A stretch of 64,000 bases of DNA from Candidatus Adlerbacteria bacterium. GTDB lineage: Bacteria; Patescibacteriota; Minisyncoccia; Phycocordibacterales; SBAW01. The stretch covers positions 83,178 to 147,177 of the forward strand of contig CAVVLG010000002.1 of assembly GCA_963749085.1 (NCBI GenBank). Reading direction: 5' to 3'. The notes beneath the pieces were generated by a model that saw only the letters and a list, made by a program, of their open reading frames with translations, had not been told where the DNA came from and did not search any database. Numbering within the stretch: the first letter of the stretch is position 1; every line of letters starts with the position of its first letter. The position numbers were made by a program, and so were the translations under genes. Positions 5,162 through 59,857 of the stretch are shown piece after piece.

Positions 5162-7189
5162 CTAATGCGGCACCTTCCTAAATGCCGTTTCAATTTCCTT
5201 AAGGCCGACGGGCTTAGTAAGATGAAGAGAAAAACCTGCTTTGAGCGCCTGTGCCTTGTCTTTAGGCTGGCCATACCCCGTGAGCGCAATGAGGGTGGAT
5301 GAAAAGTCTTTTTTTCCTTGCAATACGCGCGCGACTTCATATCCGTCTATATCCGGCAGTCCGATATCCAGGATGATGATCTGCGGGTGGAATTGTTGGG
5401 CCTTATATATCGCTTCGGAACCGTTGAGAGCGAGTTGGACCTCGTGTCCACGAAGCTCCAGAAGCCGTCCGAGTGCTTCAGCCGCCACCTCATTATCGTC
5501 AACAACAAGTATGGAGCGAGTATATTTAACCCGACGCAACGCCCGGCCGACGTGAAGTTTTGGCCGAACGACCGATGGCAGCTGTACATCCGCGGGCAAC
5601 GGCAAACGAACAATAAACTCGGAGCCGAGCCCTTCTCCTGGGCTAGTCGCTTCTATGCTGCCGCCGTGCATTTCGACAAGCTGGCGCGTCAGCGGCAAAC
5701 CAACGCCGAGTCCTTCGGTAGCCAGTTGTCCGCGCTCGACCTGAAAGAAAGGCTCAAAAATGCGCTTGAGCATGTTTTTCGGGATGCCGATACCGTTGTC
5801 GCGCACGCGGATGACCGCCGTAGTGCCCTCCTTCCGGGAGACCAGCTCTATGGACCCGTTGGGCTTGGTGTATTTTGCCGCGTTGTTAAGAAGGTTCACC
5901 AGTATCTGCTCAAGCCGTATGGGATCGGCGTCTAGATACAGCTCATGCTCCGGTTTTACGACGGCGAGAGTATGGCCGCGGCTGCGTATGAGTGTCTGAG
6001 CCGCGCGCACGGAACGGTCGATCAGGGAATCCAAAGAAAGTTTTTCCTTTCGCAGTGTCAGTTTATTCTGCGATATGCGGGAGACATCGAGCAGATCGTC
6101 CAGCATGCTGGTCATGGCGCGGACATGCTCGTCTATCGTCTGGAGGAGCAGAGCCGTGTCCGGCGCATGTGTTTCCTGCAGTCTCAGAAGTTCGGCCGAA
6201 CTCAGTATCGCCGAGAGCGGGTTGCGAAGCTCGTGGGCGAGGATCGCGAGGAAGTTTTTTCTCGCTTCGTCTTCGGATGAGACCTTGTGCAGTGCCTGCT
6301 CCAGCTCCTCGACGTGATGCCGCAGCAATCTCTGAGTGTTTTTGCGCTCCTCGACAACGGCGGCAAAAATAAGGAACACCGCGCTCGTGGTCCCTATGAA
6401 TAATTGGAGGTAGAACAATCCTTCAAAGGCGTACGGGCCGTACCCCGCAAATGCACCCGAAAGAGCTACGACTGCCACAAGAAAGAGCGCAAGCGTCGTG
6501 CCCCGCGGGCCAGTGCGCAGCGACGCCCAGGTCAGCGGGATAAAAAGGTAATAGACGAAATTTGTCTGCGGCGTCCAGAAAACGAAGAGGGAGACGCACA
6601 ACACCGTGAGCGCGACCGCGCCGAGCTCTATATACTGCAGCGGCGTTCTACTAAAAAACGGCTGGGAAATCCATTTGAGGAGAAAAGGCGAAACGATGAG
6701 AATACCGAGCACGTTTCCGATCCACCACTCCATCCCTGTTACTTGTATCGCTGCCGTACTGAGCCCTCCGAGCCGCAGACTTACCACCGCGAGGGCGACA
6801 CTTATCAAGCTGGCGCACAGTGCCACTGCAATAATGCCGATATTATCGCGCAATCGCGCAAAAGCCGGATTGAGACCGACATATCGCCGCAGCACATATG
6901 TGCCAGCGAGACTCTGAAGTGTATTTCCGAGCGCAATGCCAAGCGCCAGGAGGGGCGTTCCACCCGCGGAGAGATTCACCGCAAACGAAGCAAGGATAAC
7001 GGCAGGCCAAAGGCTGTACCCATATAAAAAGAGGGCGGCGAGCGCAATGCCTGCCTCCAGCGAGACTACAGGTACGAACGCAGTAACTGGATGAATGGCA
7101 AGCTCAAGGCGCCCGATGATGAAATAGGCTGCAAAAAGCCCCACATGGGGGCCAAACCGTTTGAGATAGTGGGAAAAAAGCTGAGGCAT
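5162..7189 (-). CDS. hybrid sensor histidine kinase. It has a polytopic membrane sensor domain, HisKA, HATPase_c and a C-terminal receiver domain.
   Basis: H-box FLAILAHELRNPLSAI. N/G boxes (NLLNNAAKYT, VRDNGIGIP, GLGVGLPLTRQ). Receiver ILVVDDNEVAAE...IILDIGLPDIDGYEV...LHLTKPV. The start is set at the ATG one nt after the regulator stop (TGAcATG). The track start at 7231 is a TTG with a 40-nt overlap. Confidence 0.88.
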   Translation of the reverse strand: MPQLFSHYLKRFGPHVGLFAAYFIIGRLELAIHPVTAFVPVVSLEAGIALAALFLYGYSLWPAVILASFAVNLSAGGTPLLALGIALGNTLQSLAGTYVLRRYVGLNPAFARLRDNIGIIAVALCASLISVALAVVSLRLGGLSTAAIQVTGMEWWIGNVLGILIVSPFLLKWISQPFFSRTPLQYIELGAVALTVLCVSLFVFWTPQTNFVYYLFIPLTWASLRTGPRGTTLALFLVAVVALSGAFAGYGPYAFEGLFYLQLFIGTTSAVFLIFAAVVEERKNTQRLLRHHVEELEQALHKVSSEDEARKNFLAILAHELRNPLSAILSSAELLRLQETHAPDTALLLQTIDEHVRAMTSMLDDLLDVSRISQNKLTLRKEKLSLDSLIDRSVRAAQTLIRSRGHTLAVVKPEHELYLDADPIRLEQILVNLLNNAAKYTKPNGSIELVSRKEGTTAVIRVRDNGIGIPKNMLKRIFEPFFQVERGQLATEGLGVGLPLTRQLVEMHGGSIEATSPGEGLGSEFIVRLPLPADVQLPSVVRPKLHVGRALRRVKYTRSILVVDDNEVAAEALGRLLELRGHEVQLALNGSEAIYKAQQFHPQIIILDIGLPDIDGYEVARVLQGKKDFSSTLIALTGYGQPKDKAQALKAGFSLHLTKPVGLKEIETAFRKVPH

Positions 7190-7190
7190 G

Positions 7191-7865
7191 TCATGCCACG
7201 AGGCGGTACCCGACGCCGCGGACTGTCTCAAAATGAGCCGAGTTGCTGTTCTGACCGAGTTTTTTGCGCAGATTCTTCATGTGCACGTCGAGAACGTTGC
7301 TGTACGTCAGAGCGTTAAAGTCCCACACTTTATTGGAGAGCTCTTCGCGCGTGAATACTTCTCCGGGCCGGCGAAGAAAACATTCAAGGAGAGAGTATTC
7401 CTTGAGGGTCAGGGGAATTTCGGTATCCCCGACGGACACGCGGCGGGCGCCGGTATTTATCGTAATATCGCCCACGGCATGTATCACCCTCGGTGCTGCC
7501 TTGGGGCGCCGCGATACGGAGTTAATGCGAGCGATGAGCTCTTCCGAAGAAAATGGTTTTACCACGTAATCGTCGGCACCCGAGTTCAAGAGCTCAACTT
7601 TATATTCCGTTCCGGATTGACCGGTAAGAATAATGACCGGTGTGGTGATATGGTCGGCTCGCAGGAACTTGGTAAGAGTAATTCCGTCGAGGCCCGGCAG
7701 CGTGAGATCAAGAATGATAGCGTCGTATTCCTTGTGATAGAGCGAGATGCGATTTCGCGCTTTCTCGCCATCCGCGAGCCAGTCTACCGCAAAACCCTTC
7801 AGTTCAAGGATTTTCTTGAGGTTTTTTGCAAGGGCCTCCTCGTCCTCTACGATTAAGAGTCTCAT
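7191..7865 (-). CDS. OmpR/PhoB-family response regulator (receiver plus winged-helix DNA-binding domain)
   Basis: MRLLIVEDEEALAKNL...ILDLTLPGLDG...ADDYVVKPFSSEEL. C-terminal TVRGVGYRL. Confidence 0.92.
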   Translation of the reverse strand: MRLLIVEDEEALAKNLKKILELKGFAVDWLADGEKARNRISLYHKEYDAIILDLTLPGLDGITLTKFLRADHITTPVIILTGQSGTEYKVELLNSGADDYVVKPFSSEELIARINSVSRRPKAAPRVIHAVGDITINTGARRVSVGDTEIPLTLKEYSLLECFLRRPGEVFTREELSNKVWDFNALTYSNVLDVHMKNLRKKLGQNSNSAHFETVRGVGYRLVA

Positions 7866-48541: not shown

Positions 48542-49094
48542 TATGAGCGACCTTTCCGCGCGTATTGAAGCCGTTCTGTTTGCACTGGGCCGACCCGCCT
48601 CGCGCGAAGAACTCGCTCGCAAGCTCAGCGTATCAGCTGATGCACTTGAAAAAGCGTTGAACGATCTAAGCGAGGAGAAGCACGGCGTCGTTGTGGTTGA
48701 CGACGGCAGAGAATTGCAGCTGCGCGCCTCGCCAAGGGTCGCAGAGCTTATCGAGCGCATCCGCAAAGAAGAGTACACCCGCGACATAGGCCGTGCGGGG
48801 CTTGAAGCGCTCTCCGCGATACTCTACCGCGGACCCCTCACGCGGGCGGAAATAGATTTCATACGCGGCGTCAATTCCTCGCAAACCTTGCGTACGCTCT
48901 CCGTGCGCGGACTCGTACGCAGAATCACCAATCCCAAAGACGAGCGGTCCTTCCTGTACGAGCCGACCACCGAGCTACTCTCACAGCTGGGTGTCGCGCG
49001 CGTGAGCGAATTGCCGGAGTTTAAACGTATTCAAGAGAAATTAGCCACGCTCGAAGAAGCGTACCGAGCGAAGGAGACTACGGATGCCGTATGA
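48534..49094 (+). CDS. scpB: segregation and condensation protein B
   Basis: Tandem winged-helix. IEAVLFALGRPASREELA...LEALSAILYRGPLTRAEIDFIRGVNSSQTLRTL. ATG overlaps the scpA stop. Confidence 0.85.
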   Translation: MNDMSDLSARIEAVLFALGRPASREELARKLSVSADALEKALNDLSEEKHGVVVVDDGRELQLRASPRVAELIERIRKEEYTRDIGRAGLEALSAILYRGPLTRAEIDFIRGVNSSQTLRTLSVRGLVRRITNPKDERSFLYEPTTELLSQLGVARVSELPEFKRIQEKLATLEEAYRAKETTDAV

Positions 49095-49993
49095 CCCTTA
49101 GGGAGATTCCCCCAACGCTTATGGTCTCCATTGCCGGCACCGTACTCGGGTGCTTGTTGTTCGCTGGATTCCTTGCGTACCACTATGCGCACCAAACTAC
49201 TGCCACTAAGGTAGCCTTCCAAGCGTCGCTCACGCTCAGTCCTACCTTGCTTCTCGCCCAGTCTGCCGTGTTGTACGACCCGAGCGACGGACGCATCCTG
49301 TTTGAAAAAAAAGCCGATGCCGTGCGTCCCCTGGCATCGCTAACGAAATTGATGTCGGCGGAGGTAGTACTCAATAACGAGGAACAATTCCTCAACACGC
49401 CCATTACCATGGCGACGTCAGACTTAGCCACGGCAGGAGATGCGGGGGATTGGGGTTTTCATGCGGGCGACGTGGTAACGCTGGGAAATTTGGTTAAATT
49501 CGGGCTCGTCGCTTCTTCAAACGACGCCATGGCCGCCGCGGCCACAAGCCTCGGCCCCAACTACATAAACGACATGAACCGCACGGCAGGAGCGCTCGGG
49601 CTCATGAGCACGTATTTTTTAAATTCAACCGGGCTTGACCTCAACGACGATACCTCAGGCGCCTACGGATCGGCAACGGATGTGGCGCGACTCGCGGCGG
49701 CATTTCTCAAGACCTATCCGCAATACTTTGAGCTAACCGAGTACCCGACTATAGCCATTGATGACAGCGGCAAAGTGCTCGTGGCCGACGCAACGGCACG
49801 GCCCATTCAAAATATCCCCGGGCTTATCGGCGCCAAGACCGGGTATACCGATTTGGCCGGCGGCAACTTGGTCGCGGCGTTTGATATTGATATCGGACAC
49901 CCCCTTATCGCGGTGGTGCTGGGGTCAACGGAGGAGGGCCGCTTCAGCGATATACGGACTATAATAAACGCTGCACGCACCCAATACCTATGA
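49091..49993 (+). CDS. D-alanyl-D-alanine carboxypeptidase (S11 peptidase, PBP5/6-like)
   Basis: SLTKLM (SxxK), SSND (SxN), KTGYT (KTG). Confidence 0.82.
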   Translation: MTLREIPPTLMVSIAGTVLGCLLFAGFLAYHYAHQTTATKVAFQASLTLSPTLLLAQSAVLYDPSDGRILFEKKADAVRPLASLTKLMSAEVVLNNEEQFLNTPITMATSDLATAGDAGDWGFHAGDVVTLGNLVKFGLVASSNDAMAAAATSLGPNYINDMNRTAGALGLMSTYFLNSTGLDLNDDTSGAYGSATDVARLAAAFLKTYPQYFELTEYPTIAIDDSGKVLVADATARPIQNIPGLIGAKTGYTDLAGGNLVAAFDIDIGHPLIAVVLGSTEEGRFSDIRTIINAARTQYL

Positions 49994-51039
49994 ACGCCTT
50001 CGACGTACTGCGCATATTCCTCCCCGCAACCGTCGCCTTTCTTTTCGGCATTGCGCTGACGCCTTTTTTGACCCACTTTCTCTACCAGCGGCAGATGTGG
50101 AAGCAAAAGGGGGGCAAAATAGGGCTCGACGGAAAGCCGGCCGAAGTATTCAATCAGCTCCACGAACACAAAGAAGTCGGCACGCCGCGCTTCGGCGGCG
50201 TCATCGTGTGGGGCAGCGTCGTCTTTACCGCCGCGCTCTTTCAGATACTGTATATATTCTTTCCCAGTTCCTTCAATAATTTGGCGTTCATAAGCCGCAG
50301 CCAGACGTGGGTTCCTCTCGCGGCGCTTCTCGTCGGTGCTCTGGTCGGACTCATGGACGATTTTTACGAAGTGCAGGGCAGGAGGGGACTGCCGTTACGC
50401 GTGCGGCTGAGCATCGTGGCGATAGTGGGACTTGTGTGCGCCTACTGGTTTTACGCCAAGCTCGGCGTTTCATCCATTTCCTCCTTCGGTGCGCCGATAG
50501 AGCTTGGCGTGTGGTTCATACCGTTCTTTATCCTCGTGACGCTCTTCATCTACGCCGGCGGTGTGATAGACGGCCTCGACGGCCTTGCAGGCGGCACCTT
50601 TTCCTCCGTGTTCGCCGCTTACGCCTGCATCGCGTACTTCCAGGACCAGATGAATCTCGCGGCTTTGTGCGCGGCCATAGCCGGAGGGCTCCTCGCCTTT
50701 TTGTGGTTTAACATTCCTCCCGCGCGCTTCTATCTCTCCGAAACCGGCACCATGGGTTTAACGCTTACCCTCGTCGTCGTAGCGTTTTTGACCGATAAAC
50801 TGGGGGGCGGCAGGGGAGTCATTGTGCTCCCTATTATTGCGCTGCCCTTGGTCGCGACTGTGCTTTCCAATATCGTGCAAATGCTGAGCAAAAAAATATG
50901 GGGGAGAAAACTGTTCCGCATCGCGCCGCTGCACCATCACTTTGAAGCCCTTGGCTGGCCCTCCTACAAGGTAGTGATGCGCTACTGGATAGTAGGACTT
51001 ATTGCGGCCATTATCGGCATAAGCATCGCGTTGCTGTGA
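49990..51039 (+). CDS. mraY: phospho-N-acetylmuramoyl-pentapeptide transferase
   Basis: Polytopic. GLMDDF, GGVIDGLDGLA motifs. Confidence 0.92.
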   Translation: MNAFDVLRIFLPATVAFLFGIALTPFLTHFLYQRQMWKQKGGKIGLDGKPAEVFNQLHEHKEVGTPRFGGVIVWGSVVFTAALFQILYIFFPSSFNNLAFISRSQTWVPLAALLVGALVGLMDDFYEVQGRRGLPLRVRLSIVAIVGLVCAYWFYAKLGVSSISSFGAPIELGVWFIPFFILVTLFIYAGGVIDGLDGLAGGTFSSVFAAYACIAYFQDQMNLAALCAAIAGGLLAFLWFNIPPARFYLSETGTMGLTLTLVVVAFLTDKLGGGRGVIVLPIIALPLVATVLSNIVQMLSKKIWGRKLFRIAPLHHHFEALGWPSYKVVMRYWIVGLIAAIIGISIALL

Positions 51040-52133
51040 AAAAGTCCATAGACACTCCATTCCTGCTGACGCTCTCCGCCTTGGTGGTGTGCGGATTGCT
51101 CATATTCACTTCCGCAGCGCTCTCGCTGTTAGCCGAGGACGGTGGTGCTACGTTTACGTCGGTTGCTGTAAGCCAGTTGCTCTTAGGTCTCGTGTGCGGA
51201 AGCATCGGCTTGGTGTTTTTCGCCAAGATAGATTATCGCATTTGGAAACCCTACACGATTTACCTTTTTGCTGTAGGCGTCATGCTTTCGCTCCTGACCT
51301 TTGTGCCCCATATCGGACTGTCACTGAAAGGTGCGGCCCGCTGGATTGTCGTCGGCCCTCTTTCCTTCCAGCCGGAGGAAATACTGAAATTCGCGACCGT
51401 AATGCTCTTGGCAGCGGTGTTTTCTGCGCGCATGCGCACAGTCAACACCATCCGTGGCGGCATCATTCCATTGATCCTTATCGCCGGTAGCGCAGGAGTT
51501 ATTTTGCTCATTCAGCCCGATACAGCAGGCGTCTTGGTCATCGGGATGGCGGGCTTGGCGATGCTATACGCTGCAGGAGGTAGGATCTCCCACATGCTCG
51601 CGCTCATCCTCCTCGGCGTCCTTATCATAGGCATCGCCGCCTATGAGCGACCCTATATCGCCCAGCGCATCGAGACTTTTCTTAATCAGTCCGCTGATCC
51701 GGAAGGTGCCGGCTTTCAGATTGAGCAGTCCCTTATTTCAGTAGGCTCGGGTGGTCTCACGGGGCAGGGCTTTGGCCAGGGTATAGAAAAATTTTCCTAT
51801 CTTCCCGAGCCCATAGGCGATTCTATTTTTGCTGTTGTGGGCGAGGAGTTTGGTTTTATCGGAAGCGCGGCACTTGTCCTTCTATATGCGGCTATAGCGC
51901 TCTTGGGGTTGCGCATAGCGGCGAAGGCGCCGGATCCCTTCGGAGGACTCTTGGTGGTCGGTTTTATCATCCTCATCGTCGGTCAGTCGTTTTTTAATAT
52001 TGCTTCGGCAATAGGGTTGGTACCCTTGGTGGGGGTTCCTTTAGTATTCGTCTCTCACGGTGGTACTTCGCTTGCGGTGTCACTTGCCGAAGTAGGCGTT
52101 GTTCTCAGTGTTTCAAGGAGAATGAAGAGTTAA
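51036..52133 (+). CDS. ftsW: SEDS-family peptidoglycan glycosyltransferase FtsW/RodA
   Basis: Ten TM helices and a SEDS pattern. The GTG start overlaps the mraY stop. Confidence 0.88.
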   Translation: MKKSIDTPFLLTLSALVVCGLLIFTSAALSLLAEDGGATFTSVAVSQLLLGLVCGSIGLVFFAKIDYRIWKPYTIYLFAVGVMLSLLTFVPHIGLSLKGAARWIVVGPLSFQPEEILKFATVMLLAAVFSARMRTVNTIRGGIIPLILIAGSAGVILLIQPDTAGVLVIGMAGLAMLYAAGGRISHMLALILLGVLIIGIAAYERPYIAQRIETFLNQSADPEGAGFQIEQSLISVGSGGLTGQGFGQGIEKFSYLPEPIGDSIFAVVGEEFGFIGSAALVLLYAAIALLGLRIAAKAPDPFGGLLVVGFIILIVGQSFFNIASAIGLVPLVGVPLVFVSHGGTSLAVSLAEVGVVLSVSRRMKS

Positions 52134-52201
52134 AAAAACGCCCCCAGAATATCCCCACGTCCTCCTTTGACAATAGCCAAGCAGACCACATACTTCACCA
52201 T

Positions 52202-54265
52202 ATGGAAGGAGCCCCTCGTCCTGAAGCGAAGACTGAACCTGTAGATTCTGAAGCGACAAAGAAAGGTGAGCAGCTAAGTAAATCGACATCAACCGGAGAG
52301 AAAGACTCTACAAAGGGAATGAAGGATATCGCCCTGGAGTATCTCGAAAAGTGGGAAAACCCCGCTCCAGACCTCTCTAAGGAAGGCATAGAAAGGAGAG
52401 CAACCCGCGTCACCGAAGCAATTGAGTTGGCAAAGACAAAGCGGGCAGAAGCAGAGAAAAAGAAGGGGGAGAGGGCGGCCCGCGTTGCTGAAGTAATTGA
52501 ACTTACCAAAGCGAAACGAACCGAATCGAAAGTACAGGAGGGCCCGCAGGAGACGACTCCCAAGGATTGGGAGGAAAGCCTCGGTGCGGTAAAGGCGCAG
52601 CAGGAAAAAGCCGCGGCTGAAGAAACACGAGAGGTGTCGGGAGGCGGCGTCCAAGCAACAAAGGCGGAAACAAAAGGAGCTTCTGAAGCTGCCCCTGTGA
52701 CTCTGGAACAGTTGAAACTAAACCTTGATAATGCCCGCGCGGAACAATTGAAGGCGGTGCACGACCACGAAGAGGCGCGTCGCCATCATATTGGCTTGTT
52801 CGGCCGAACACAAGAAAAAATATTCGGCAAGAAGGACACACTTGAAAAATCTGATTCGTATAAACGGGCCGAGAAAGAGTACCAGGAAGCAAAAGTCGGC
52901 TATGCACAATTCTTGCTCAAGAGTAGCTTAGATGAGAAAGGGGTGCCTTTGCCAAGGAAACAAAACGAGGTTATTGGTTTTGTGGAAGAGGAAATGAAGG
53001 CTTATGCGGCGCTTCTTACTCCCGTTTCAGTTGAAAAAGCGGGTTTGGTGCAGAAACTATGGCGCGGATACACGCAGATGCCGAGAGGAAATCGGATAGC
53101 GTTGACGCTTGCTCTTTCGGGAGTAGCCGCCGGACTCGTTTCATTTTCCCTTGGGGCAAGCGCCGCCGCTGCCGCCGGGGTCTTGGGGTACCGAATTGTA
53201 AGAGGAGGAATCGGAACTGCTGTTGGCACCATTTCTACTGGGCTTTATGGAAAGTATCGTGGTTCCAAAATCGAGAGACAGCAAGGTTTGCAGCGACAGA
53301 ACGTCATACGCGGACTTTCAATGACCAATATGAACGATGCCATTAAAACAGTAGAATCGCTCCAAAAAGAAAGAGAGAAATTCGATACCAGAACGGGTTG
53401 GAGAAAGGCACTCATCGCCGTAGCTGTTGGAGGTACAACAGCGGGAACGCTGTCGCTGCTCCACGGTGTTTCTGAAGCGGCGGTTGGAATACCAATTGCA
53501 GGAACTGGAGCCGACCTTCCACCTGGGCCAACTGGTGCGGCGGAAATAAAGGATTACTCTATATTCACCGGACCGCATGCAACCGGCGCAGGCATTGATC
53601 CAAGAACAGAAGGTCCGCCAATTATGCCTATGCCCAAAATGTCTTTCCCGGGCGATATCCAAAATCCAGGAGGTATGGCTGCACCCGGCACATCTTTCCC
53701 GGTTACTTCCGAAGCGCTGCCAGATATCACCCCGCCGAAGGATTACTCTATATTCACTGGCCCACATGCAACGGGCGCAGGCATTGATCCAAGAACAGAA
53801 ACTCCGCTGATGGGCGACGCACCTAAGGACTATTCAATCTTTACCGGACCGCATGCAACCGGCGCGGATATTGATCCGAGGACCGAGGGTCTGCCGTACG
53901 CGCCTGGAGGTTCCCTGGGGGGTGTAACGTTCCACGTCGGACCGGGAGACAATTTATGGAGGCTCAACGAACGAATGCTTAGTACGAATAAAGATTTTAC
54001 GACGCTCAATACGGCTCAAAAACATTGGATGCTCTCCACTATCGAGAAACAGTATCATCAGATGAGTCAGCAAGATCTTCAAGATAGGCATTTTTCGCGC
54101 GATACGAGCGGAAAATTCAATGTCAACAATATACAGACGGGTCAAGAGGTCAAACTGGTCAATGTGAGTGGGTCGAGGATGATCAATGATTTATTGCAGA
54201 GTGCTCGCAATCTCACTCCGGAGCAGCAGCGCAGTATTTTGCTGAACCGACTCGGAAAAAGATGA
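52202..54265 (+). CDS. hypothetical 687-aa membrane protein. It has a K/E-rich coiled-coil N-terminal region, two TM helices, three 21-aa tandem repeats (DYSIFTGPHATGAGIDPRTE) and a LysM-like C-terminal segment.
   Basis: Domain order read from the translation. VTFHVGPGDNLWRLNERML resembles the LysM core. CATACT hexamer 7 nt before the ATG. Confidence 0.6.
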   Translation: MEGAPRPEAKTEPVDSEATKKGEQLSKSTSTGEKDSTKGMKDIALEYLEKWENPAPDLSKEGIERRATRVTEAIELAKTKRAEAEKKKGERAARVAEVIELTKAKRTESKVQEGPQETTPKDWEESLGAVKAQQEKAAAEETREVSGGGVQATKAETKGASEAAPVTLEQLKLNLDNARAEQLKAVHDHEEARRHHIGLFGRTQEKIFGKKDTLEKSDSYKRAEKEYQEAKVGYAQFLLKSSLDEKGVPLPRKQNEVIGFVEEEMKAYAALLTPVSVEKAGLVQKLWRGYTQMPRGNRIALTLALSGVAAGLVSFSLGASAAAAAGVLGYRIVRGGIGTAVGTISTGLYGKYRGSKIERQQGLQRQNVIRGLSMTNMNDAIKTVESLQKEREKFDTRTGWRKALIAVAVGGTTAGTLSLLHGVSEAAVGIPIAGTGADLPPGPTGAAEIKDYSIFTGPHATGAGIDPRTEGPPIMPMPKMSFPGDIQNPGGMAAPGTSFPVTSEALPDITPPKDYSIFTGPHATGAGIDPRTETPLMGDAPKDYSIFTGPHATGADIDPRTEGLPYAPGGSLGGVTFHVGPGDNLWRLNERMLSTNKDFTTLNTAQKHWMLSTIEKQYHQMSQQDLQDRHFSRDTSGKFNVNNIQTGQEVKLVNVSGSRMINDLLQSARNLTPEQQRSILLNRLGKR
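53552..53890 (+). repeat. three intragenic copies of a roughly 63-nt repeat (starting at 53552, 53741 and 53828) encoding the 21-aa motif
   Basis: Near-identical nucleotide copies seen directly. Spacing is irregular (189 nt and 87 nt between repeat starts) and the copies are coding. Confidence 0.8.
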
Positions 54266-54298
54266 GCATTATTAACGTGTATAATACTTAAGATATAT

Positions 54299-54607
54299 AT
54301 GGATGCAGCTAAGATAAAACAATCGATGATAGAGCAGTGGGGGTTGAGCGCGGTGTCTCCCGCAGAGCAGGACGAGTATATCGACCGTATCGGTAAACTA
54401 CTCTATCAAGCTGTCATTTTGCGAGTAACGGAGGACATGACCGATGAGGACAAGGATGCCCTAGATACGTTCATGAGCCAAAACCCGGAAGCCGATGCGG
54501 TACAGATCCTTGATTTCCTCAGCACGCGTATCCCTGACTTTTCTCAGATACTGGGCGAAGAAACTGCGAAACTCAAGGAATTGATTGCTCCTCCCGTAGC
54601 GGCGTAA
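54299..54607 (+). CDS. small acidic hypothetical protein (102 aa)
   Basis: TATAAT 13 nt upstream. D/E-rich. No known motif. Confidence 0.45.
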   Translation: MDAAKIKQSMIEQWGLSAVSPAEQDEYIDRIGKLLYQAVILRVTEDMTDEDKDALDTFMSQNPEADAVQILDFLSTRIPDFSQILGEETAKLKELIAPPVAA

Positions 54608-54641
54608 AACCCTATCTCTTCGTTACTGCTGGAGTGAAGTC

Positions 54642-57371
54642 TCAACGTAACGCGGAAGCGATTTCTTTCTCTATGTTCTCCCGTGGACGCCCATACAACT
54701 GATAGGACAACTCCCGCATCGCATCAACCTGTTCCATACTTCCCCTCGCGAACGGCAGTGTTTCAATATTAAAGGGAGTTGCCGGTCTACCACCGATGAG
54801 CAAGCGCACAAATGCATTGAAGTTGTCGACCTGCATAAGGTCGCTAGCGGAAAACGGCGGGGAGAACTGTTTTTCCAGAAATTCGGCATCATCTGCTCCG
54901 ACGCGGAAGGCGCACAGGGAGCCGACGTTGCCGAACACCGCATCCCGTATCTCTTCGGTAAGCTGGGCAATGAACTGATGCGCCACGGTAAGCGATAACT
55001 TGTATTTCCGCGCTTCCGACAGAATGGTAGCGATTGAAGGGGTTGCAAAATTCTGGAACTCGTCGATATGGAGATAGAAGGGCGGCAACTCCTTGCCAAA
55101 GGAATCAGCCCTCGAAAGTGCTGCGATTTGAAATTTACCGACGATAACTAGCCCGAGCAAATTGGCGTTGAGATCGCCGATTCGGCCCTTAGCGAGGTTA
55201 ACCAAAAGAATTTTCCGAGTATCCATTATCTCCCTGAAGTTGAATGCAGATTTTTGCTGAGCAATAATCGGACGTACGAAATCGTTGGAGGTGAACTGAT
55301 CGAATTTGCTCGTGACGTATGGACCGTAGTTTTGCAAGCCCTGTTCGCCGGTAGCCTGCTCAGCTATGCCCTCCCAAAACGCTTTTACAATCGGGTTTTT
55401 GCATACAGTCAGTTTGTGGGCGCGAAAAACTGGGTCACTGAATATCCGCCCGATATCAAGGAGCGTGTTGCCGCTTGCCGGATCCTCCATTACGAGGAGC
55501 GCCGCGTTACGGAAGTACTGTAAGAATGCGGGTCCCATACTTTCCGGTATGTCACCAAACAATTTTTGAAAAATACCAATAAGCTCGTCGACGACCAACG
55601 TTTTCTGTTCGGGTCGTGTGACATCGTACTCGAGCATGTTAAGCCCCATCGGTCGCTCAGTGTGTGCCGGATCGAAATAAATAACATCCTGTTGACGCTC
55701 TGGAGGTATAGCGGAGAGAATGTCCAATACGTCAGTGCCATGCGGGTCGATGAAACAAACACCACTGCCGGCGCGGATATCCTGCACCACCATGTTTTTG
55801 AGAAGCGACGATTTGCCGGTGCCGGTTTGGCCCACCAAATAAAAGTGCCGCAATCTATCTTCGGCTTCGATATATACTTTGGTCTCAAGATTGCGGAAAC
55901 GGTTGATGCCAAGCAGAGTACCACCTTTCGGGAGCGTCGAAGGTGCGGGTGCTACCTGACTTTTCTCCTGTTGCAGCTGGGGCGCCGCCACAATGCCGCC
56001 CGGCCGGGGCAAGTGCGCCATGGTCGCAAGCTCAGTTGCAGAAAGGGGGAGTGAGGCGTCCTCATCGAGCGTGCGGTAGGAAAATGCATGAGCGAATTTT
56101 TTAATGCCGCGCGGCGAAATAACTTTAAACCGAAGTGCGTTACCTGCGGTGTCGGTAAATTGTTGAAACGGCGCCTCCAAATCGAGCAAAATGGCCTCTG
56201 CACGCTCCCGTGTCGGGGCCGACGCAACGAGGCGAATATCGGCATGAAGAATAGGACTTTCTATCTTGTGTTCGATATTTTTTATGCGTGGATCGTCGGG
56301 AGGCGGCCGTTTATCCTGCTCAAGTCTTTTATTCGGCCCAAAAAATGAAGCTATTTCTCCCAGTATACGAGGAATTCCCGTCTTAATGTCAGTGGCGCGA
56401 TTGATAGGGAAGCCCGCGCGAATATCCTGCAGAGCGCTCCGATAGCGGGCATCGAGTTCGTGGCCCTGGGGTGACACGACGAATTGCACAGCCGCGCCTT
56501 CGCTGATCTCGTCCAATTTGGAAAACGAATTGAGCAACACATCGAGCGGGTCGTTCGCGAAGGCCTCAAACGTGCGCAGCGAATAAATGCTTCGTGCCGT
56601 GAATGAGGCGCTCGCGGCGGCAATCTCGGCGCCCGGAGCAAACGCATTGTAGTCGTTGTGGCGTTCGGTCAAGCGCGCTGCGGGGTATAGGGAGAGTAGT
56701 TGTTTCTCAAAGAGTGCTTTGCGCGTGCTCGGTACGGCAATATATACCGTCGTGTGCACCAATCCCGCGGGATTGGCTATTTCGAAAGAAAAATATTCGC
56801 CATGTTTGGCATCCATTTGAAGCATGCCGCGGTAGAACTGCTCCATAAGAGAAATCGAGTCACGAATCGTTTTTACTGGATCGGTTGATGTATCATTCTC
56901 CGCAGTTGAGGAAGGAAGCGTTACCTCAAAAAGCGTCAGCGAAAGAGTTTGTCGGAGTGACTTTGTAACCGCGGCTTTGACAGGAAGTCCCTCGCGCACA
57001 TATTCGACCAGCACACGATGAAAATCGTCAGCGAGATGAGGGTTGCCGGTCGATTCAGCCACGGTTATAGCCTTCAAAACCCCTTTTTCTTGTAGGACCT
57101 GAATCAGTTCTCCCATCCGTTCATCGTGCTGCTCTGGGCTAAGTTCCAGCGTAATCATCCCAAGTTTCTCGGGAGAAATAGTTTGGCTTGAAATACTTTT
57201 TTGCCAGTGTTCAGAAACAGTTTGTTGTGCGGCGGCGGCACTGGAATGCTCTTGCGGCACACCCTCCGCTCGCAGCTTTGCTTCAAGCGCCGCTGCTTTA
57301 GCCCGCAGTTCCTGCAGTTCCGTCCGAGCGGCATTACTCGTCGGTACTTCGATAGAACGGGATGTCTCCAT
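54642..57371 (-). CDS. VirB4/TraC/TrbE-like ATPase of the FtsK/HerA superfamily. The soluble N-terminal domain of about 450 aa is VirB4-like.
   Basis: Walker A GQTGTGKSS. CFIDPHG. Walker B LHIDEFQNF. ARKYKLSLTVAHQ (Arg finger). 909 aa with no TM helix. TATACT 6 nt before the ATG. Confidence 0.75.
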   Translation of the reverse strand: METSRSIEVPTSNAARTELQELRAKAAALEAKLRAEGVPQEHSSAAAAQQTVSEHWQKSISSQTISPEKLGMITLELSPEQHDERMGELIQVLQEKGVLKAITVAESTGNPHLADDFHRVLVEYVREGLPVKAAVTKSLRQTLSLTLFEVTLPSSTAENDTSTDPVKTIRDSISLMEQFYRGMLQMDAKHGEYFSFEIANPAGLVHTTVYIAVPSTRKALFEKQLLSLYPAARLTERHNDYNAFAPGAEIAAASASFTARSIYSLRTFEAFANDPLDVLLNSFSKLDEISEGAAVQFVVSPQGHELDARYRSALQDIRAGFPINRATDIKTGIPRILGEIASFFGPNKRLEQDKRPPPDDPRIKNIEHKIESPILHADIRLVASAPTRERAEAILLDLEAPFQQFTDTAGNALRFKVISPRGIKKFAHAFSYRTLDEDASLPLSATELATMAHLPRPGGIVAAPQLQQEKSQVAPAPSTLPKGGTLLGINRFRNLETKVYIEAEDRLRHFYLVGQTGTGKSSLLKNMVVQDIRAGSGVCFIDPHGTDVLDILSAIPPERQQDVIYFDPAHTERPMGLNMLEYDVTRPEQKTLVVDELIGIFQKLFGDIPESMGPAFLQYFRNAALLVMEDPASGNTLLDIGRIFSDPVFRAHKLTVCKNPIVKAFWEGIAEQATGEQGLQNYGPYVTSKFDQFTSNDFVRPIIAQQKSAFNFREIMDTRKILLVNLAKGRIGDLNANLLGLVIVGKFQIAALSRADSFGKELPPFYLHIDEFQNFATPSIATILSEARKYKLSLTVAHQFIAQLTEEIRDAVFGNVGSLCAFRVGADDAEFLEKQFSPPFSASDLMQVDNFNAFVRLLIGGRPATPFNIETLPFARGSMEQVDAMRELSYQLYGRPRENIEKEIASALR

Positions 57372-57438
57372 ATGAGGGAAGTATAACAGTCTCTCCTACC
57401 CCACAAAGCTCTTTTTCTGATAAACTGGGAGCATAGGT

Positions 57439-58566
57439 ATGAAGATTTTATTCACCGGGGGAGGATCAGGAGGACATTTTTACCCCATAATTGCCGTAGC
57501 GGAAGCCGTAAACGACCTCGTGCGAGAGAGAAAGCTTCTTGAACCGCAGCTCTATTACGCGGCGCCCGAGCCCTATGATCGAGAGATGCTGGTGGCACAA
57601 AATATCATGTTCGTCCCCACTGCGGCGGGAAAGATTCGCAACTATTTCTCCGTCCTCAATTTTTTCGATTATTTCAAAACAGGGTGGGGGACCTTCCGTT
57701 CGGTACTGCGCATTTTCTTTCTCTACCCCGATGTGGTATTCGGCAAAGGAGGTTACGTGAGTTTCCCGACGTTGCTTGCCGCAAAGTTGTTCCGCATACC
57801 GGTTGTCATCCACGAGTCTGATGCCGATCCAGGCCGTGTAAATCGCTGGGCCGGAAAGTTTGCTCAAAAAATTGCGATTTCCTATCCGGAAGCCGCGCAC
57901 TACTTCCCGAAAGAAAAAGTCGCTTTTACCGGCAACCCCGTGCGCAAAGCGGCGCTATTCCCGGCGCGCGAGGGCGCGTTCGAGTTTCTTAAACTCAAAC
58001 ACGATATACCGGTCATCTTTATCACCGGTGGCTCACAGGGAGCACAAGCCATAAACGAATGCGTGCTTGAGGCTCTTCCACAGCTCATTGAGAAATATCA
58101 GCTAGTGCACCAGACCGGCGAGGAGAATTTCAAGGAGGTCGAGGGCAGAGCGAAGGTCGTTCTTGAAAATTCTCTCCATGCGGATCGCTACAAGCCGTTC
58201 GGCTATCTCAACGATCTTGCCATGCGCATGAGCGCGGGTGCCGCAGCTCTGGTCATCTCGCGCGCGGGCTCAACCATCTTCGAGATAGCCGGGTGGGGGC
58301 TACCGTCGATAATCATTCCCATACCGGAGCCCATCTCGCACGACCAGACGAAGAATGCGTTCGCCTACGCGCGCTCGGGTGCGTGCGTAGTTATCGAGCA
58401 GAACAATCTGACTCCCGGTCTCCTCGCTGCAGAGATACAGAGAATTTTGGACAAACCAGAATCCGTGCATAAGATGGCCGAAGCCGCGCGCGCATTTGCT
58501 CGGCCCGATGCTGCCAAAGCGATAGCCAACGCGCTCATTGATATTGCTCTCTCCCATGAAGTCTGA
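57439..58566 (+). CDS. murG: undecaprenyldiphospho-muramoylpentapeptide beta-N-acetylglucosaminyltransferase
   Basis: MKILFTGGGSGGHFYPIIAVAEA. C-terminal GT-B domain. Confidence 0.92.
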   Translation: MKILFTGGGSGGHFYPIIAVAEAVNDLVRERKLLEPQLYYAAPEPYDREMLVAQNIMFVPTAAGKIRNYFSVLNFFDYFKTGWGTFRSVLRIFFLYPDVVFGKGGYVSFPTLLAAKLFRIPVVIHESDADPGRVNRWAGKFAQKIAISYPEAAHYFPKEKVAFTGNPVRKAALFPAREGAFEFLKLKHDIPVIFITGGSQGAQAINECVLEALPQLIEKYQLVHQTGEENFKEVEGRAKVVLENSLHADRYKPFGYLNDLAMRMSAGAAALVISRAGSTIFEIAGWGLPSIIIPIPEPISHDQTKNAFAYARSGACVVIEQNNLTPGLLAAEIQRILDKPESVHKMAEAARAFARPDAAKAIANALIDIALSHEV

Positions 58567-59857
58567 CCCCGTCACGCGATTTGCGCCGTCGCCAACCGGC
58601 AATCTCAATTTAGGCGCTGTGCGCGCGGGTATTTTTGCTTATTTGTTCGCCCGACACGCCAAAGGCACCTTTATTGTACGCATCGAAGATACGGATAAGG
58701 AGCGATCAAAGAAGGAGTACGAGAAGGATATTTTGGATTCGCTGAAATGGCTCGGCATAGAGTACGATACCCTCTACCGACAAAGCGATCACGCCACGAG
58801 GCACGAGGAGCTGCTGCGCACACTCATAGCTGAAGATAAGGCGTATGTGTCCAAAGAAACTCCGCAGGAGGAAGGAGGAAGGGAGGAGGTCATACGCTTC
58901 CGCAATCCAAACAAGACACTTAACTTTACTGATCTGGTGCGCGGGGACATTAGTTTCGACACCACTGAACTGAAGGACTTTATCATTGCCAGAAGTCTTA
59001 CCGAGCCGGTGTTTCATTTCGCCGTGGTCGTAGACGACTGGGATGAAGGCGTAACTCATGTCATACGCGGGGAAGATCATATTTCAAACACGCCGCGCCA
59101 GATACTCATACAAGAAGCGCTCGGAGCTCCCCGGCCGCAGTACGCTCACCTGCCGCTTATCTTGGGGAGCGACGGTACCAAGCTCTCTAAGCGCAAAGGC
59201 GCTAAAGCCATAAGTGAATATCGCGAGATGGGGTATCTGCCTGAAGCCATTTTGAATTATGATGCGCTGCTCGGCTGGCATCCAGGAGATGATCAGGAAA
59301 TCTTAAACAAACAGCAGCTTATCGACAGATTTACGCTAGAGCGGGTGCAAAAAAGCCCCGCGACGTTTGATGACACCAAGCTGCTGTGGTTTAACCGTGA
59401 ACATTTAAAATTATTCTCTGAGGACGAGTTCGCACAACGCCTGGAGACTTTTAGTGGCAAAGAAATTGACGAGCGTCTGGTGCCCCTCTTGCGTGAGCGC
59501 TCGCAGACTCTTAAAGGAGCAGCGGACGCCCTTGAGGGGGGAGAATATGACTTTCTTGGCACGGTAGCAGTGAATAAAGAATTACTGCTTAAAGGAGCAA
59601 AGACCGATACTGCATTGGCAAAGAAACACCTTCAAACAGTTTCTGAGCTTCTCGAGCCGCTTAAGGACTTTACACCGGAGCACATAAAGGGCGTCGTATT
59701 CCCCTATGCGACCGAGCAGGGGAGGGCATCCGTATTGTGGCCCCTGCGGGTTGCTCTTTCGGGGAGGGAGAAGTCGCCCGATCCGTTCACTTTGGCCGCT
59801 CTTATAGGCAAAAAAGAAGCTCTGAAGCGCATACAAGAGGCTGTTTTAGCCCTTTAG
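58556..59857 (+). CDS. gltX: glutamate--tRNA ligase
   Basis: RFAPSPTGNLNLGAVRAGIFAYLFAR, HVIRGEDHISNTPRQ, KLSKRKG. ATG 11 nt inside the murG 3' end. The track start is a TTG. Confidence 0.9.
   Translation: MKSDPVTRFAPSPTGNLNLGAVRAGIFAYLFARHAKGTFIVRIEDTDKERSKKEYEKDILDSLKWLGIEYDTLYRQSDHATRHEELLRTLIAEDKAYVSKETPQEEGGREEVIRFRNPNKTLNFTDLVRGDISFDTTELKDFIIARSLTEPVFHFAVVVDDWDEGVTHVIRGEDHISNTPRQILIQEALGAPRPQYAHLPLILGSDGTKLSKRKGAKAISEYREMGYLPEAILNYDALLGWHPGDDQEILNKQQLIDRFTLERVQKSPATFDDTKLLWFNREHLKLFSEDEFAQRLETFSGKEIDERLVPLLRERSQTLKGAADALEGGEYDFLGTVAVNKELLLKGAKTDTALAKKHLQTVSELLEPLKDFTPEHIKGVVFPYATEQGRASVLWPLRVALSGREKSPDPFTLAALIGKKEALKRIQEAVLAL

Follow-up and report, generated by a model that had tools for sequence, protein, structure and literature searches.

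The three genes found between ftsW and murG constitute a native, lineage-conserved gene set, and neither a foreign island nor a new secretion system; their family has been catalogued in Patescibacteria before, and their relocation into the cell-wall cluster, at the ftsW-murG junction, concerns one lineage only. The reading we favour, at a probability of roughly 0.5, is that of a native coupling-ATPase module which was relocated within its genome and serves the patescibacterial type IV secretion system (T4SS). That it stands beside ftsW and murG most likely reflects a rearrangement and has no functional meaning.

The window, i.e. the whole 64-kb stretch of DNA that was analysed, stems from an ultra-small Patescibacteria bacterium (Paceibacteria/Parcubacteria group, Adlerbacteria-like), the host of the trio, and carries the following features:

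51036..52133, plus strand: ftsW (FtsW/RodA/SpoVE family; Pfam PF01098, E 2e-85), left border of the insertion
52167..52194, plus strand: promoter-like TTGACA-16-CATACT, its end 7 nt 5' of the start codon of the 687-aa gene
52202..54265, plus strand: 687-aa membrane protein, a divergent member of the family encoded just before DUF5663 genes
53549..53894, plus strand: 70-nt repeat in three dispersed copies (53549-53618, 53738-53807 and 53825-53894; 81-91% identity)
53930..54199, plus strand: C-terminal domain of LysM-like type (residues 577-666), its two LysM halves separated by ~45 aa of putatively helical insert
54299..54607, plus strand: 102-aa protein, acidic (pI 4.2) and helical, a probable DUF5663 member; TATAAT 12-13 nt before the ATG
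54642..57371, minus strand: 909-aa ATPase
54642..55955, minus strand: C-terminal P-loop motor of the ATPase (residues 473-909), assigned to the coupling-protein (VirD4/TraG/TrwB) type
55050-55079, minus strand: Walker B region FYLHIDEFQN of the motor domain
55809-55832, minus strand: Walker A motif GQTGTGKS of the motor domain
55956..57371, minus strand: N-terminal domain of the ATPase (residues 1-472, Pfam DUF8128), with a predicted VirB4 N-terminal docking-domain fold and no transmembrane segment
57372..57438, no strand: divergent intergenic region, with TATACT on the minus strand 8 nt 5' of the ATPase start codon, and GGGAG on the plus strand before that of murG
57439..58566, plus strand: murG (Pfam PF03033 and PF04101; 80 related loci), right border of the insertion

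The three open reading frames, the convergent orientation of the ATPase gene relative to the two plus-strand genes, and the flanks assigned by Pfam (dacA-like, mraY and ftsW upstream, murG and gltX downstream) were all confirmed as the sequence-only reading had described them. The insertion it had proposed was borne out by the relatives: ftsW and murG were adjacent in 64 of the 66 related contigs having both genes, with a median gap of 10 nt, and the trio genes stood at this junction in none of the 66. The trio is a true insertion that interrupts an mraY-ftsW-murG-gltX run otherwise conserved in the relatives, and because of this interruption the synteny comparison does not support ftsW-[trio]-murG as the ancestral gene order.

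The 909-aa protein is a soluble member of the VirB4/VirD4 radiation, in agreement with its first placement among T4SS ATPases. Judged by sequence, its motor domain is of the coupling-protein (VirD4/TrwB/TraG) class and not of the VirB4 class. Pfam matches were obtained to TraG-D_C (25.1 bits, cut-off 22), T4SS-DNA_transf (21.6 bits, cut-off 20.1) and DUF87, TrwB_AAD_bind scored 16.9 bits, which is under its cut-off, and NCBIfam gave partial TraD and VirD4-like matches. TrwB was the only match in a sequence search of the PDB, Foldseek also returned Cagbeta and DotL besides TrwB, and the ATPase is 29-35% identical to annotated plasmid coupling proteins (T4CPs). In the model, Walker A and Walker B are separated by a helical block of ~130 aa (residues 589-717), a candidate for the all-alpha domain inserted in coupling-protein motors. 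The claim that VirD4 is missing from the module was mistaken, because the ATPase gene is itself the VirD4-class one.

Of the original VirB4/TraC-like label, the part that stood concerns the N-terminal domain, which structural modelling indicates to have the VirB4 N-terminal fold and to replace the usual membrane anchor, whereas the motor appears to be of the VirD4/TraD/TrwB type. No hydrophobic segment was detected in residues 1-470, the peak 19-residue hydropathy of the protein (1.55) falls within the RecA-like core, and the AF2 model consists of soluble helices and an alpha/beta domain. Precomputed annotation assigns PF26449 (DUF8128) to the identical protein and, among 120 listed homologues, to nearly every one; the separate Pfam scan run here did not report it for the ATPase. 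A profile of the N-terminal domain matched 2,215 clusters at 50% identity, always in N-terminal position, and hhalign found no similarity between this domain and the TraC-like/TrsD protein of the clade.

As first proposed, the 687-aa gene encodes a repeat-bearing membrane protein, with a highly charged N-terminal third (residues ~1-281), probably on the cytoplasmic side, then a hydrophobic stretch (residues 282-425), Pro/Gly-rich repeats and a LysM-like C-terminus that is presumably external. Hydropathy peaks near residues 299 and 403, and one to three hydrophobic segments are predicted. The 70-nt repeat encodes the 21-aa peptide KDYSIFTGPHATGA[G/D]IDPRTE, with copies at residues 450, 513 and 542; no tandem repeats were detected by TRF. 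A word-indexed homologue search with the protein retrieved itself alone, no Pfam or NCBIfam family was assigned to it, and BLAST and default phmmer searches against the neighbour proteins returned nothing. The link to its family was obtained only with a family profile and with the HMMER filters switched off: the profile of the proteins encoded upstream of DUF5663 at other loci matched residues 282-422 (14.6 bits) and 577-666 (30.1 bits), both segments standing in the family's order, and the whole protein scored 37.6 bits (E 6.4e-10 against 7,071 ORFs) as compared with 5.7 bits for the best of 500 shuffles. The LysM-like label fits a plausible wall-binding end, as the family profile (A4) matches the LysM proteins LytE (8i2e, E 3e-7) and SafA (7r1l, E 3e-3), but it is weak, since Pfam LysM reached only E 2.9e-3 (18.0 bits, cut-off 20.9) on the C-terminus and over profile positions 2-28 only.

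The 102-aa protein matched Pfam PF18908 (DUF5663) at E 1.7e-3 (19.3 bits, under the cut-off of 23.7), and both phmmer and a custom profile grouped it with DUF5663 proteins at 17 other loci, its grouped relatives including neighbours with clear PF18908 matches. A DUF5663 gene was present within 10 kb of the ATPase at 17 of 86 independent loci, as against 0 of 80 control (murG) loci, and nearly all such genes are preceded, at a distance of 4-39 nt, by one for a large and charged membrane protein of 580-1064 aa. These two genes make up a conserved pair, a frequent companion of the ATPase, to which the 687-aa and 102-aa genes belong as divergent members.

The ATPase family is near-universal in the class and not patchy: the ATPase shares 50-77% identity with hundreds of Patescibacteria clusters, and at least 593 GTDB species genomes have it. 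Only in the four closest relatives is the ATPase (72-77% identity) linked to a VirB4 cluster, lying inside a T4SS cluster near dnaA between PrgI/TraC-like/VirB4/pilin genes and four further conserved genes. The commonest context of the gene is secY-adk-map-[ATPase]-ndk, which is devoid of secretion genes. Within the 64-kb window, tblastn and phmmer searches with the relatives' VirB4, PrgI, TraC-like, pilin and neighbouring genes revealed no other T4SS genes, as the sequence-only reading had noted, and neither a relaxase nor a VirB4 gene set is linked to the ATPase there. A full T4SS set just outside the window, which that reading had named as refuting evidence, was borne out only in so far as the closest relatives do carry the ATPase within such a cluster, but the cluster is not just outside here. 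With a relative's VirB4 as query, the best 120 matches were all >90% identical and none was on the 518,058-bp source contig. The module had also been held unplaceable in any described system, yet it finds its place among the T4CP homologues of Patescibacteria, of which 5,713 in 2,918 genomes are reported, mostly far from virB4, in a recent survey (Quinonero-Coronel et al., 2025, Microb Genom, PMC12102498). That count very probably covers the class to which the ATPase gene belongs.

For a module serving the T4SS, the ATPase would form a hexameric ring, as TrwB or VirB4, and its VirB4-like N-terminal domain could hold it at the membrane. In the R388 T4SS structure, the VirB4 N-terminal domain is a platform held by VirB3 and by VirB8 through its cytoplasmic tails (PMC9259494). 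The LysM-like end of the 687-aa protein may fix the complex to peptidoglycan, the DUF5663 protein might act as adaptor, chaperone or substrate, and proteins or nucleic acids would be recruited and energised by the module as a whole, as substrates of the patescibacterial Gram-positive-type T4SS. Speaking against this reading are the lack of a VirB4 cluster in the window, the presence of the partner pair at only ~20% of the ATPase loci and the LysM score under the Pfam threshold.

A possible, though less probable, alternative is that the three proteins, i.e. the ATPase lacking an anchor, the membrane protein with its LysM-like end and the DUF5663 protein, form a minimal membrane-bound machine of their own that is independent of the T4SS. 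Such a machine might transport DNA or RNA or take them up, export protein, or pump septal DNA like FtsK, and its coupling-protein ancestry would be history and not present function. Several observations favour it and count against coupling to a T4SS: most family members stand among housekeeping genes, and the survey places only 148 of the 5,713 patescibacterial T4CP genes near virB4 (PMC12102498); a T4SS cluster in a related genome (L168) does not contain the ATPase gene; and full-length homologues occur in the Bacillus phages G and JL, which have no T4SS, and in phrog_5156. According to the same survey, the t4cp of Southlakia, which may or may not be of the DUF8128 subfamily, is dispensable for epibiotic growth, with the T4SS being essential, and possible exaptation is raised by the authors (PMC12102498). 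The recurrent membrane partner pair of the ATPase and the location of its gene near ftsW or mraY in several lineages (L070, L073, L076, L079, L083 and L086) point in the same direction. However, no channel-forming part is evident, the 687-aa protein having only one to three hydrophobic segments, the pair was seen at only ~20% of the loci, the ATPase is embedded in the T4SS cluster of the four closest relatives, and N-terminal domains of the VirB4 type are known to serve the docking of T4SS membrane parts (PMC9259494).

A farther-reaching reading, which we regard as doubtful, would make the DUF8128 ATPases with the LysM-like and DUF5663 proteins a third VirB4/VirD4 branch, in which a VirB4-type docking domain is fused to a VirD4-type motor without a membrane anchor, and which would operate in Patescibacteria, with a related form in large Bacillus phages, as an autonomous minimal wall-anchored translocation machine independent of the canonical T4SS.

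It is unlikely that the ATPase is instead a second VirB4-like assembly ATPase, i.e. a diverged VirB4 paralogue that powers pilus or channel assembly and not substrate coupling. The VirB4-like fold of its N-terminal domain would agree with such an origin, but none of the VirB4 families CagE_TrbE_VirB, AAA_10 and P-loop_TraG matched at E <= 0.01 in Pfam, the coupling-protein families being hit instead; BLASTP against the clade's own true VirB4 aligned the Walker A region only (E 0.10); full-length TM-scores to VirB4 in Foldseek were low (0.25-0.30); and the genomes of the clade already have a VirB4 that is >90% conserved.

The foreign look ascribed to the module was not upheld. Its GC content (51.2%) compares with 54.6% in the upstream flank, 52.1% in the downstream flank and 52.0% in the whole window, and 29% of all 5.3-kb windows are no richer in GC than the module; the contrast of ~50% against ~57% first reported was overstated. 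Each trio gene has a -10-like box 7-13 nt 5' of its ATG, and no Shine-Dalgarno motif precedes the 687-aa gene. The promoter-like hexamers claimed as the module's own do exist near each ATG, but this leaderless-style layout was found at 16 of the 59 ORFs of the window, where only 6 ORFs have a Shine-Dalgarno-like motif, and therefore the box is no special mark of the module. Neither flanking repeats longer than 7 nt nor terminal repeats were detected at the module borders, the flanking genes scanned included no integrase or relaxase, and an Rfam scan of the window gave no RNA family, tRNA included. A foreign island was rejected on account of the typical GC, the native promoter style, the lack of border repeats and the core orthologues in relatives. 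Likewise, a defence system was rejected after a search with PADLOC, which gave generic ATPase matches only and none for the 687-aa and 102-aa proteins, and the suggested defence or self-contained pilus module found no support. It is most improbable that the cell-wall cluster received the trio by horizontal transfer, as a cassette from a mobile element, a prophage remnant or an anti-phage defence system: the insertion relative to all relatives sampled, the 687-aa protein with no close homologue, and the matches of the ATPase to PADLOC mad8 (E 4.8e-14), weakly to HerA, and to PHROG 5156 (E 1.9e-66) would favour it, but besides the compositional and border evidence above, the orthologues in the nearest relatives are chromosomal core genes of a family found throughout the class, and the PADLOC matches cover the generic P-loop domain only, other MADS/HerA partner genes being absent.

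To the picture of orphan coupling proteins, the locus adds an anchor swapped for a VirB4-like docking domain, the recurrent company of a small acidic protein and of a membrane protein that resembles wall binders, and full-length relatives of the ATPase in Bacillus phages; these features bear on the divergence of VirB4 and VirD4 and provide concrete testable partners for the motor. The cell-wall-cluster insertion, probably a mere rearrangement, represents a clean case of gene mobility in small, otherwise syntenic genomes.

When compared with known systems, the C-terminus of the 687-aa protein appears to keep both halves of LysM domains such as those of Bacillus subtilis LytE and SafA, with the V-x-x-GD-x-LW start and the I-x-x-G-x-x-[IV]-x-L end, but has ~45 extra residues between the halves and stays under the Pfam cut-off. 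The patescibacterial VirD4-type T4CPs are, like the gene of the window, chromosomal and from the same phylum, were likewise detected with VirD4/T4CP profiles, and usually lie far from virB4 with no relaxase nearby, whereas the DUF8128 domain, the VirB4-like fold, the missing anchor and the LysM-like/DUF5663 pair are features of the window that the cited survey passages do not describe (PMC12102498). In contrast to VirB4/TrwK (R388; PDB 7o42 and 8rtd), the ATPase has a motor that matches no VirB4 sequence family, and its gene in the window does not adjoin a VirB3/PrgI gene. With TrwB/VirD4/TraD/TraG (R388 TrwB; PDB 1e9r/1gki) it has in common a motor with Walker A and Walker B, the likeness to TrwB comprising a TM-score of 0.60-0.65 over ~450 residues and, putatively, a long helical insert between the two motifs; unlike these proteins it has a soluble domain of ~470 aa in place of the N-terminal transmembrane anchor, and unlike conjugative coupling proteins it is a chromosomal core gene, not of a plasmid or ICE, and has no relaxase/oriT context. 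The homologues in the phages of Firmicutes, namely gp156 of Bacillus phage G, S5MSQ0 of phage JL and PHROG 5156, are only ~20-23% identical to the ATPase, but match it over its full length with both domains (phrog_5156 over residues 145-904; Foldseek TM 0.61 for the phage JL protein).

The three open reading frames (ORFs) that the sequence-only reading had described between ftsW and murG were confirmed in position, strand and length, and Pfam analysis agreed with its assignment of the flanking genes.

Genes of the three-gene module and its flanks, in window coordinates
49091-49993, upstream flank, D-Ala-D-Ala carboxypeptidase (Pfam)
49990-51039, upstream flank, MraY (Pfam)
51036-52133, upstream flank, FtsW (Pfam)
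52202-54265, + strand, 687-aa membrane protein (ORF)
54299-54607, + strand, 102-aa acidic protein (ORF)
54642-57371, - strand, ATPase of 909 aa (ORF)
57439-58566, downstream flank, MurG (Pfam)
58538-59857, downstream flank, GltX (Pfam)

The remaining genes of the window are housekeeping genes (LeuRS, AlaRS, DnaK/DnaJ, an ABC exporter, an M13 peptidase and a hybrid histidine kinase), and an Rfam scan of the window returned zero families. The hybrid histidine kinase (5162-7231, - strand), which has a MASE1 sensor and a receiver domain, lies amid an otherwise minimal set of housekeeping genes.

The genes of 80 metagenomic loci carrying MurG relatives (55-83% identical) were mapped for comparison. 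The order dacA-mraY-ftsW-murG-gltX-purD recurred throughout, and in 64 of the 66 loci having both genes ftsW and murG were direct neighbours, separated by a median of 10 nt. At the two exceptions, L091 (about 1-1430) and L095 (about 1-1240), some 0.9 kb separated the two genes and carried small ORFs of 118-234 aa on the opposite strand, and the junction may be a recurrent insertion point. Because of this adjacency, and because the ATPase gene, a DUF5663 gene and a large membrane protein gene were absent from the junction in all 66 loci, the 5.3-kb module is a lineage-specific insertion; the proposed insertion of a real three-gene unit into the ftsW-murG run thus stands, and ftsW-[trio]-murG is not the ancestral order.

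The GC contrast first given for the module (50% against 57%) was overstated, as we obtained 51.2% for the module, 54.6% and 52.1% for the left and right flanks, and 52.0% for the whole window, and 29% of all 5.3-kb windows had a GC content equal to or lower than that of the module. The promoter-like hexamers ascribed to the module do exist, as -10-like hexamers 7-13 nt upstream of each ATG, but are not special to it, since 16 of the 59 window ORFs (e.g. 19435, 34909, 43289, 54299 and 63109) have such a hexamer ending 4-14 nt ahead of their start codon. A Shine-Dalgarno-like motif was found in only six of these 59 ORFs. Having the promoter close to the ATG is the normal, apparently leaderless style of this genome and points to frequent leaderless or near-leaderless mRNAs. 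Neither repeats longer than 7 nt bracketing the insert nor terminal inverted repeats were detected, and no integrase or relaxase was present among the neighbouring genes scanned. Hence, a foreign origin of the module is not supported.

The ATPase carries a conserved and intact P-loop motor, with the Walker A motif GQTGTGKS (residues 514-521) and the Walker B region HIDEFQN invariant across its family. Three Pfam families passed their cut-offs (TraG-D_C, DUF87/HerA-central and T4SS-DNA_transf) and TrwB_AAD_bind scored under its own, NCBIfam gave partial TraD/VirD4-like matches, and a 56-sequence profile matched only TrwB among all PDB sequences. Using tblastn against plasmids, residues ∼460-900 aligned at 29-35% identity with proteins annotated 'type IV secretion system DNA-binding domain', 'TraM recognition domain' or 'conjugative DNA transfer family', and alignment with the clade's own VirB4 was limited to the Walker A region (E 0.10). 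Judged by these sequence comparisons, the motor domain is that of a type IV secretion system (T4SS) coupling protein (T4CP), not of VirB4. The architecture differs from that of a canonical coupling protein, however: no transmembrane segment was found in the ATPase, and residues 1-470 form a soluble domain, DUF8128 in the database's precomputed Pfam annotation, which resembles VirB4 and stands where the membrane anchor would be. An AlphaFold2 model of the full protein (pLDDT 83) gave R388 TrwK/VirB4 as the best full-length structural matches (E 3e-14, ∼900 aligned columns, with a TM-score of only 0.25-0.30), while TrwB, Cagbeta and DotL aligned with just the C-terminal half, at target-normalised TM-scores of 0.52-0.65. 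Since no other P-loop ATPase appeared among the top structural matches, the full-length match concerns VirB4's own N-terminal domain and not the RecA-like domain. The protein thus joins an N-terminal domain of VirB4 type to a motor of VirD4 type, so that the earlier label 'VirB4-like' was half right, fitting the former but not the latter, and the statement that VirD4 was lacking was wrong because the ATPase gene is itself a VirD4-class gene. Remote full-length homologues of the ATPase (54642-57371) with both domains occur in Bacillus phages (G, at JN638751 90946-93117, JL and SP-10): phrog_5156 matched it with E 1.9e-66, phage G gp156 is 23% identical to it, and phage JL protein S5MSQ0 reached TM 0.61. 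The neighbouring phage G gp155 also matches the ATPase.

The ATPase gene has recurrent genetic partners, a membrane protein and a small acidic protein. The 102-aa protein (pI 4.2) matched Pfam DUF5663 weakly (E 1.7e-3) and grouped with clear DUF5663 genes by phmmer and a custom profile. Of 86 independent loci, 17 had a DUF5663 gene within 10 kb of the ATPase, compared with 0 of 80 murG control loci. The ATPase usually came first, followed by a large gene and then DUF5663, and in nearly all 17 loci the gene 4-39 nt upstream of DUF5663 encoded a protein of 580-1064 aa that is strongly charged in its N-terminal region and has hydrophobic segments in the centre. Sequence similarity links ten of these large proteins. 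The 687-aa protein found only itself in a word-indexed search of 5.8 billion proteins. A family profile built from the large proteins of other loci matched it with filters off and missed it with default filters; the matching segments were in the same order, a hydrophobic region (residues 282-422, 14.6 bits) and a C-terminal domain (residues 577-666, 30.1 bits), and the whole protein scored 37.6 bits (E 6.4e-10 against 7,071 ORFs), compared with 5.7 bits for the best of 500 locally shuffled copies. Both halves of the LysM motif are kept in the C-terminal domain, with ∼45 extra residues between them. As Pfam LysM fell below the cut-off (E 2.9e-3) and the family profile picked up two LysM proteins in the PDB, LytE at E 3e-7 and SafA at E 3e-3, the earlier term 'LysM-like' is plausible for this sequence but not established. 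The gene also contains three dispersed 70-nt repeats, encoding KDYSIFTGPHATGA[G/D]IDPRTE.

A word-indexed search with the ATPase returned 592 proteins, the best 120 of which were 49-76% identical over the full length, with all named proteins among these 120 from Patescibacteria. Scanning one genome per GTDB species gave at least 593 carriers, and the matches listed include Adler-, Taylor-, Nomura-, Kaiser-, Zambryski-, Sung-, Morani- and Portnoybacteria. An N-terminal-domain profile found 2,215 clusters at 50% identity, the domain being N-terminal every time. Gene context was read in 87 loci, and the commonest (∼25) had the ATPase gene where the ribosomal-protein operon ends, as secY-adk-map-[ATPase]-ndk-DUF2238-RNase J. 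At the four closest relatives (L001, L002, L006 and L007; ATPase 72-77% identical), the gene lies on the opposite strand, embedded in a T4SS cluster adjoining dnaA/rnpA/yidC, with the coding-strand order (right to left in L006) uvrD, ksgA, four conserved genes, [ATPase], PrgI, TraC-like, VirB4, two genes, T4SS pilin and one gene. A further relative (contig Ga0207663_10000002) has the dnaA-proximal T4SS cluster without the ATPase gene (L168, 485764-507578) and an intact ftsW-murG junction (L099, 127581-144702), and its ATPase gene must sit at a third position. As the operon end, the T4SS cluster and a cluster without the gene all occur among relatives, the position of the ATPase gene is fluid even within the clade, and the window therefore represents one more relocation. 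Patescibacterial T4CP homologues have already been catalogued, and the module is one of them, native to the genome and moved to a new place within it; the reading first proposed, a foreign, unplaceable minimal secretion module, is not supported.

Several further observations were made at these loci. The T4SS genes of the closest relative, L001 (6955-9281; ATPase 77% identical), look fragmented, e.g. a VirB4-like ORF of only 212 aa, which could reflect pseudogenisation or assembly error. In several other lineages (L070, L073, L076, L079, L083 and L086) the ATPase lies no more than a few genes from ftsW or mraY, never between ftsW and murG; the proximity may be coincidental, the genomes being small and dense, or may reflect a weak, recurring association with envelope genes. 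More distant lineages (L065-L087, e.g. L070, L079 and L083) show a ∼130-156-aa ORF followed by a ∼800-aa ORF as the ATPase homologue, which may reflect a real split that sets an N-terminal coiled-coil piece apart, or an ORF-calling artefact. Among the matches listed, the clade's VirB4 (L007:7226-9073, protein matches P0122-P0241) stays above 90% identity in more than 120 clusters, themselves drawn at a 90% threshold, against 49-76% for the DUF8128 ATPase, and constraint is therefore far stronger on VirB4.

VirB3 of R388 wraps the N-terminal domain of VirB4, and the cytoplasmic tails of VirB8 bind the same domain (PMC9259494). By analogy, the ATPase would be recruited to the membrane via its N-terminal domain, by the 687-aa protein through its long, charged N-terminal region, by VirB3/VirB8-like parts of the T4SS, or by both; the LysM-like end of the 687-aa protein would tie the assembly to the wall, DUF5663 would act as adaptor, chaperone or substrate, and the motor, as a hexamer, would deliver substrates to the T4SS. 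We give this T4SS-coupling mechanism as a whole a probability of about 0.5. The main rival, which is less probable, is that the ATPase family was exapted into a machine working without a T4SS; it draws on the housekeeping gene contexts, the T4SS cluster of L168 without the ATPase gene, the full-length homologues in Bacillus phages and, according to PMC12102498 (also PMC12857230), a t4cp that is dispensable in Southlakia although the T4SS is essential. A role as a VirB4 paralogue fits the data poorly and seems improbable. Very improbable, and likewise a poor fit, is a mobile-element or defence origin of the module.

Coupling of the ATPase to a T4SS, our preferred reading, concerns a class that is already known: the published survey (PMC12102498) counts 5,713 VirD4-type T4CP homologues across 2,918 genomes of Patescibacteria and places only 148 of these homologues near virB4. 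It also records few relaxases and virB4 clusters that commonly adjoin dnaA, dnaN, rnpA and ksgA (also PMC12857230). The gene contexts found here match that survey. As far as its available text goes, three features seem to be undescribed: an N-terminal domain of VirB4 type in the place of the anchor, the conserved pairing of DUF5663 with a LysM-like membrane protein, and the phage homologues of the ATPase.
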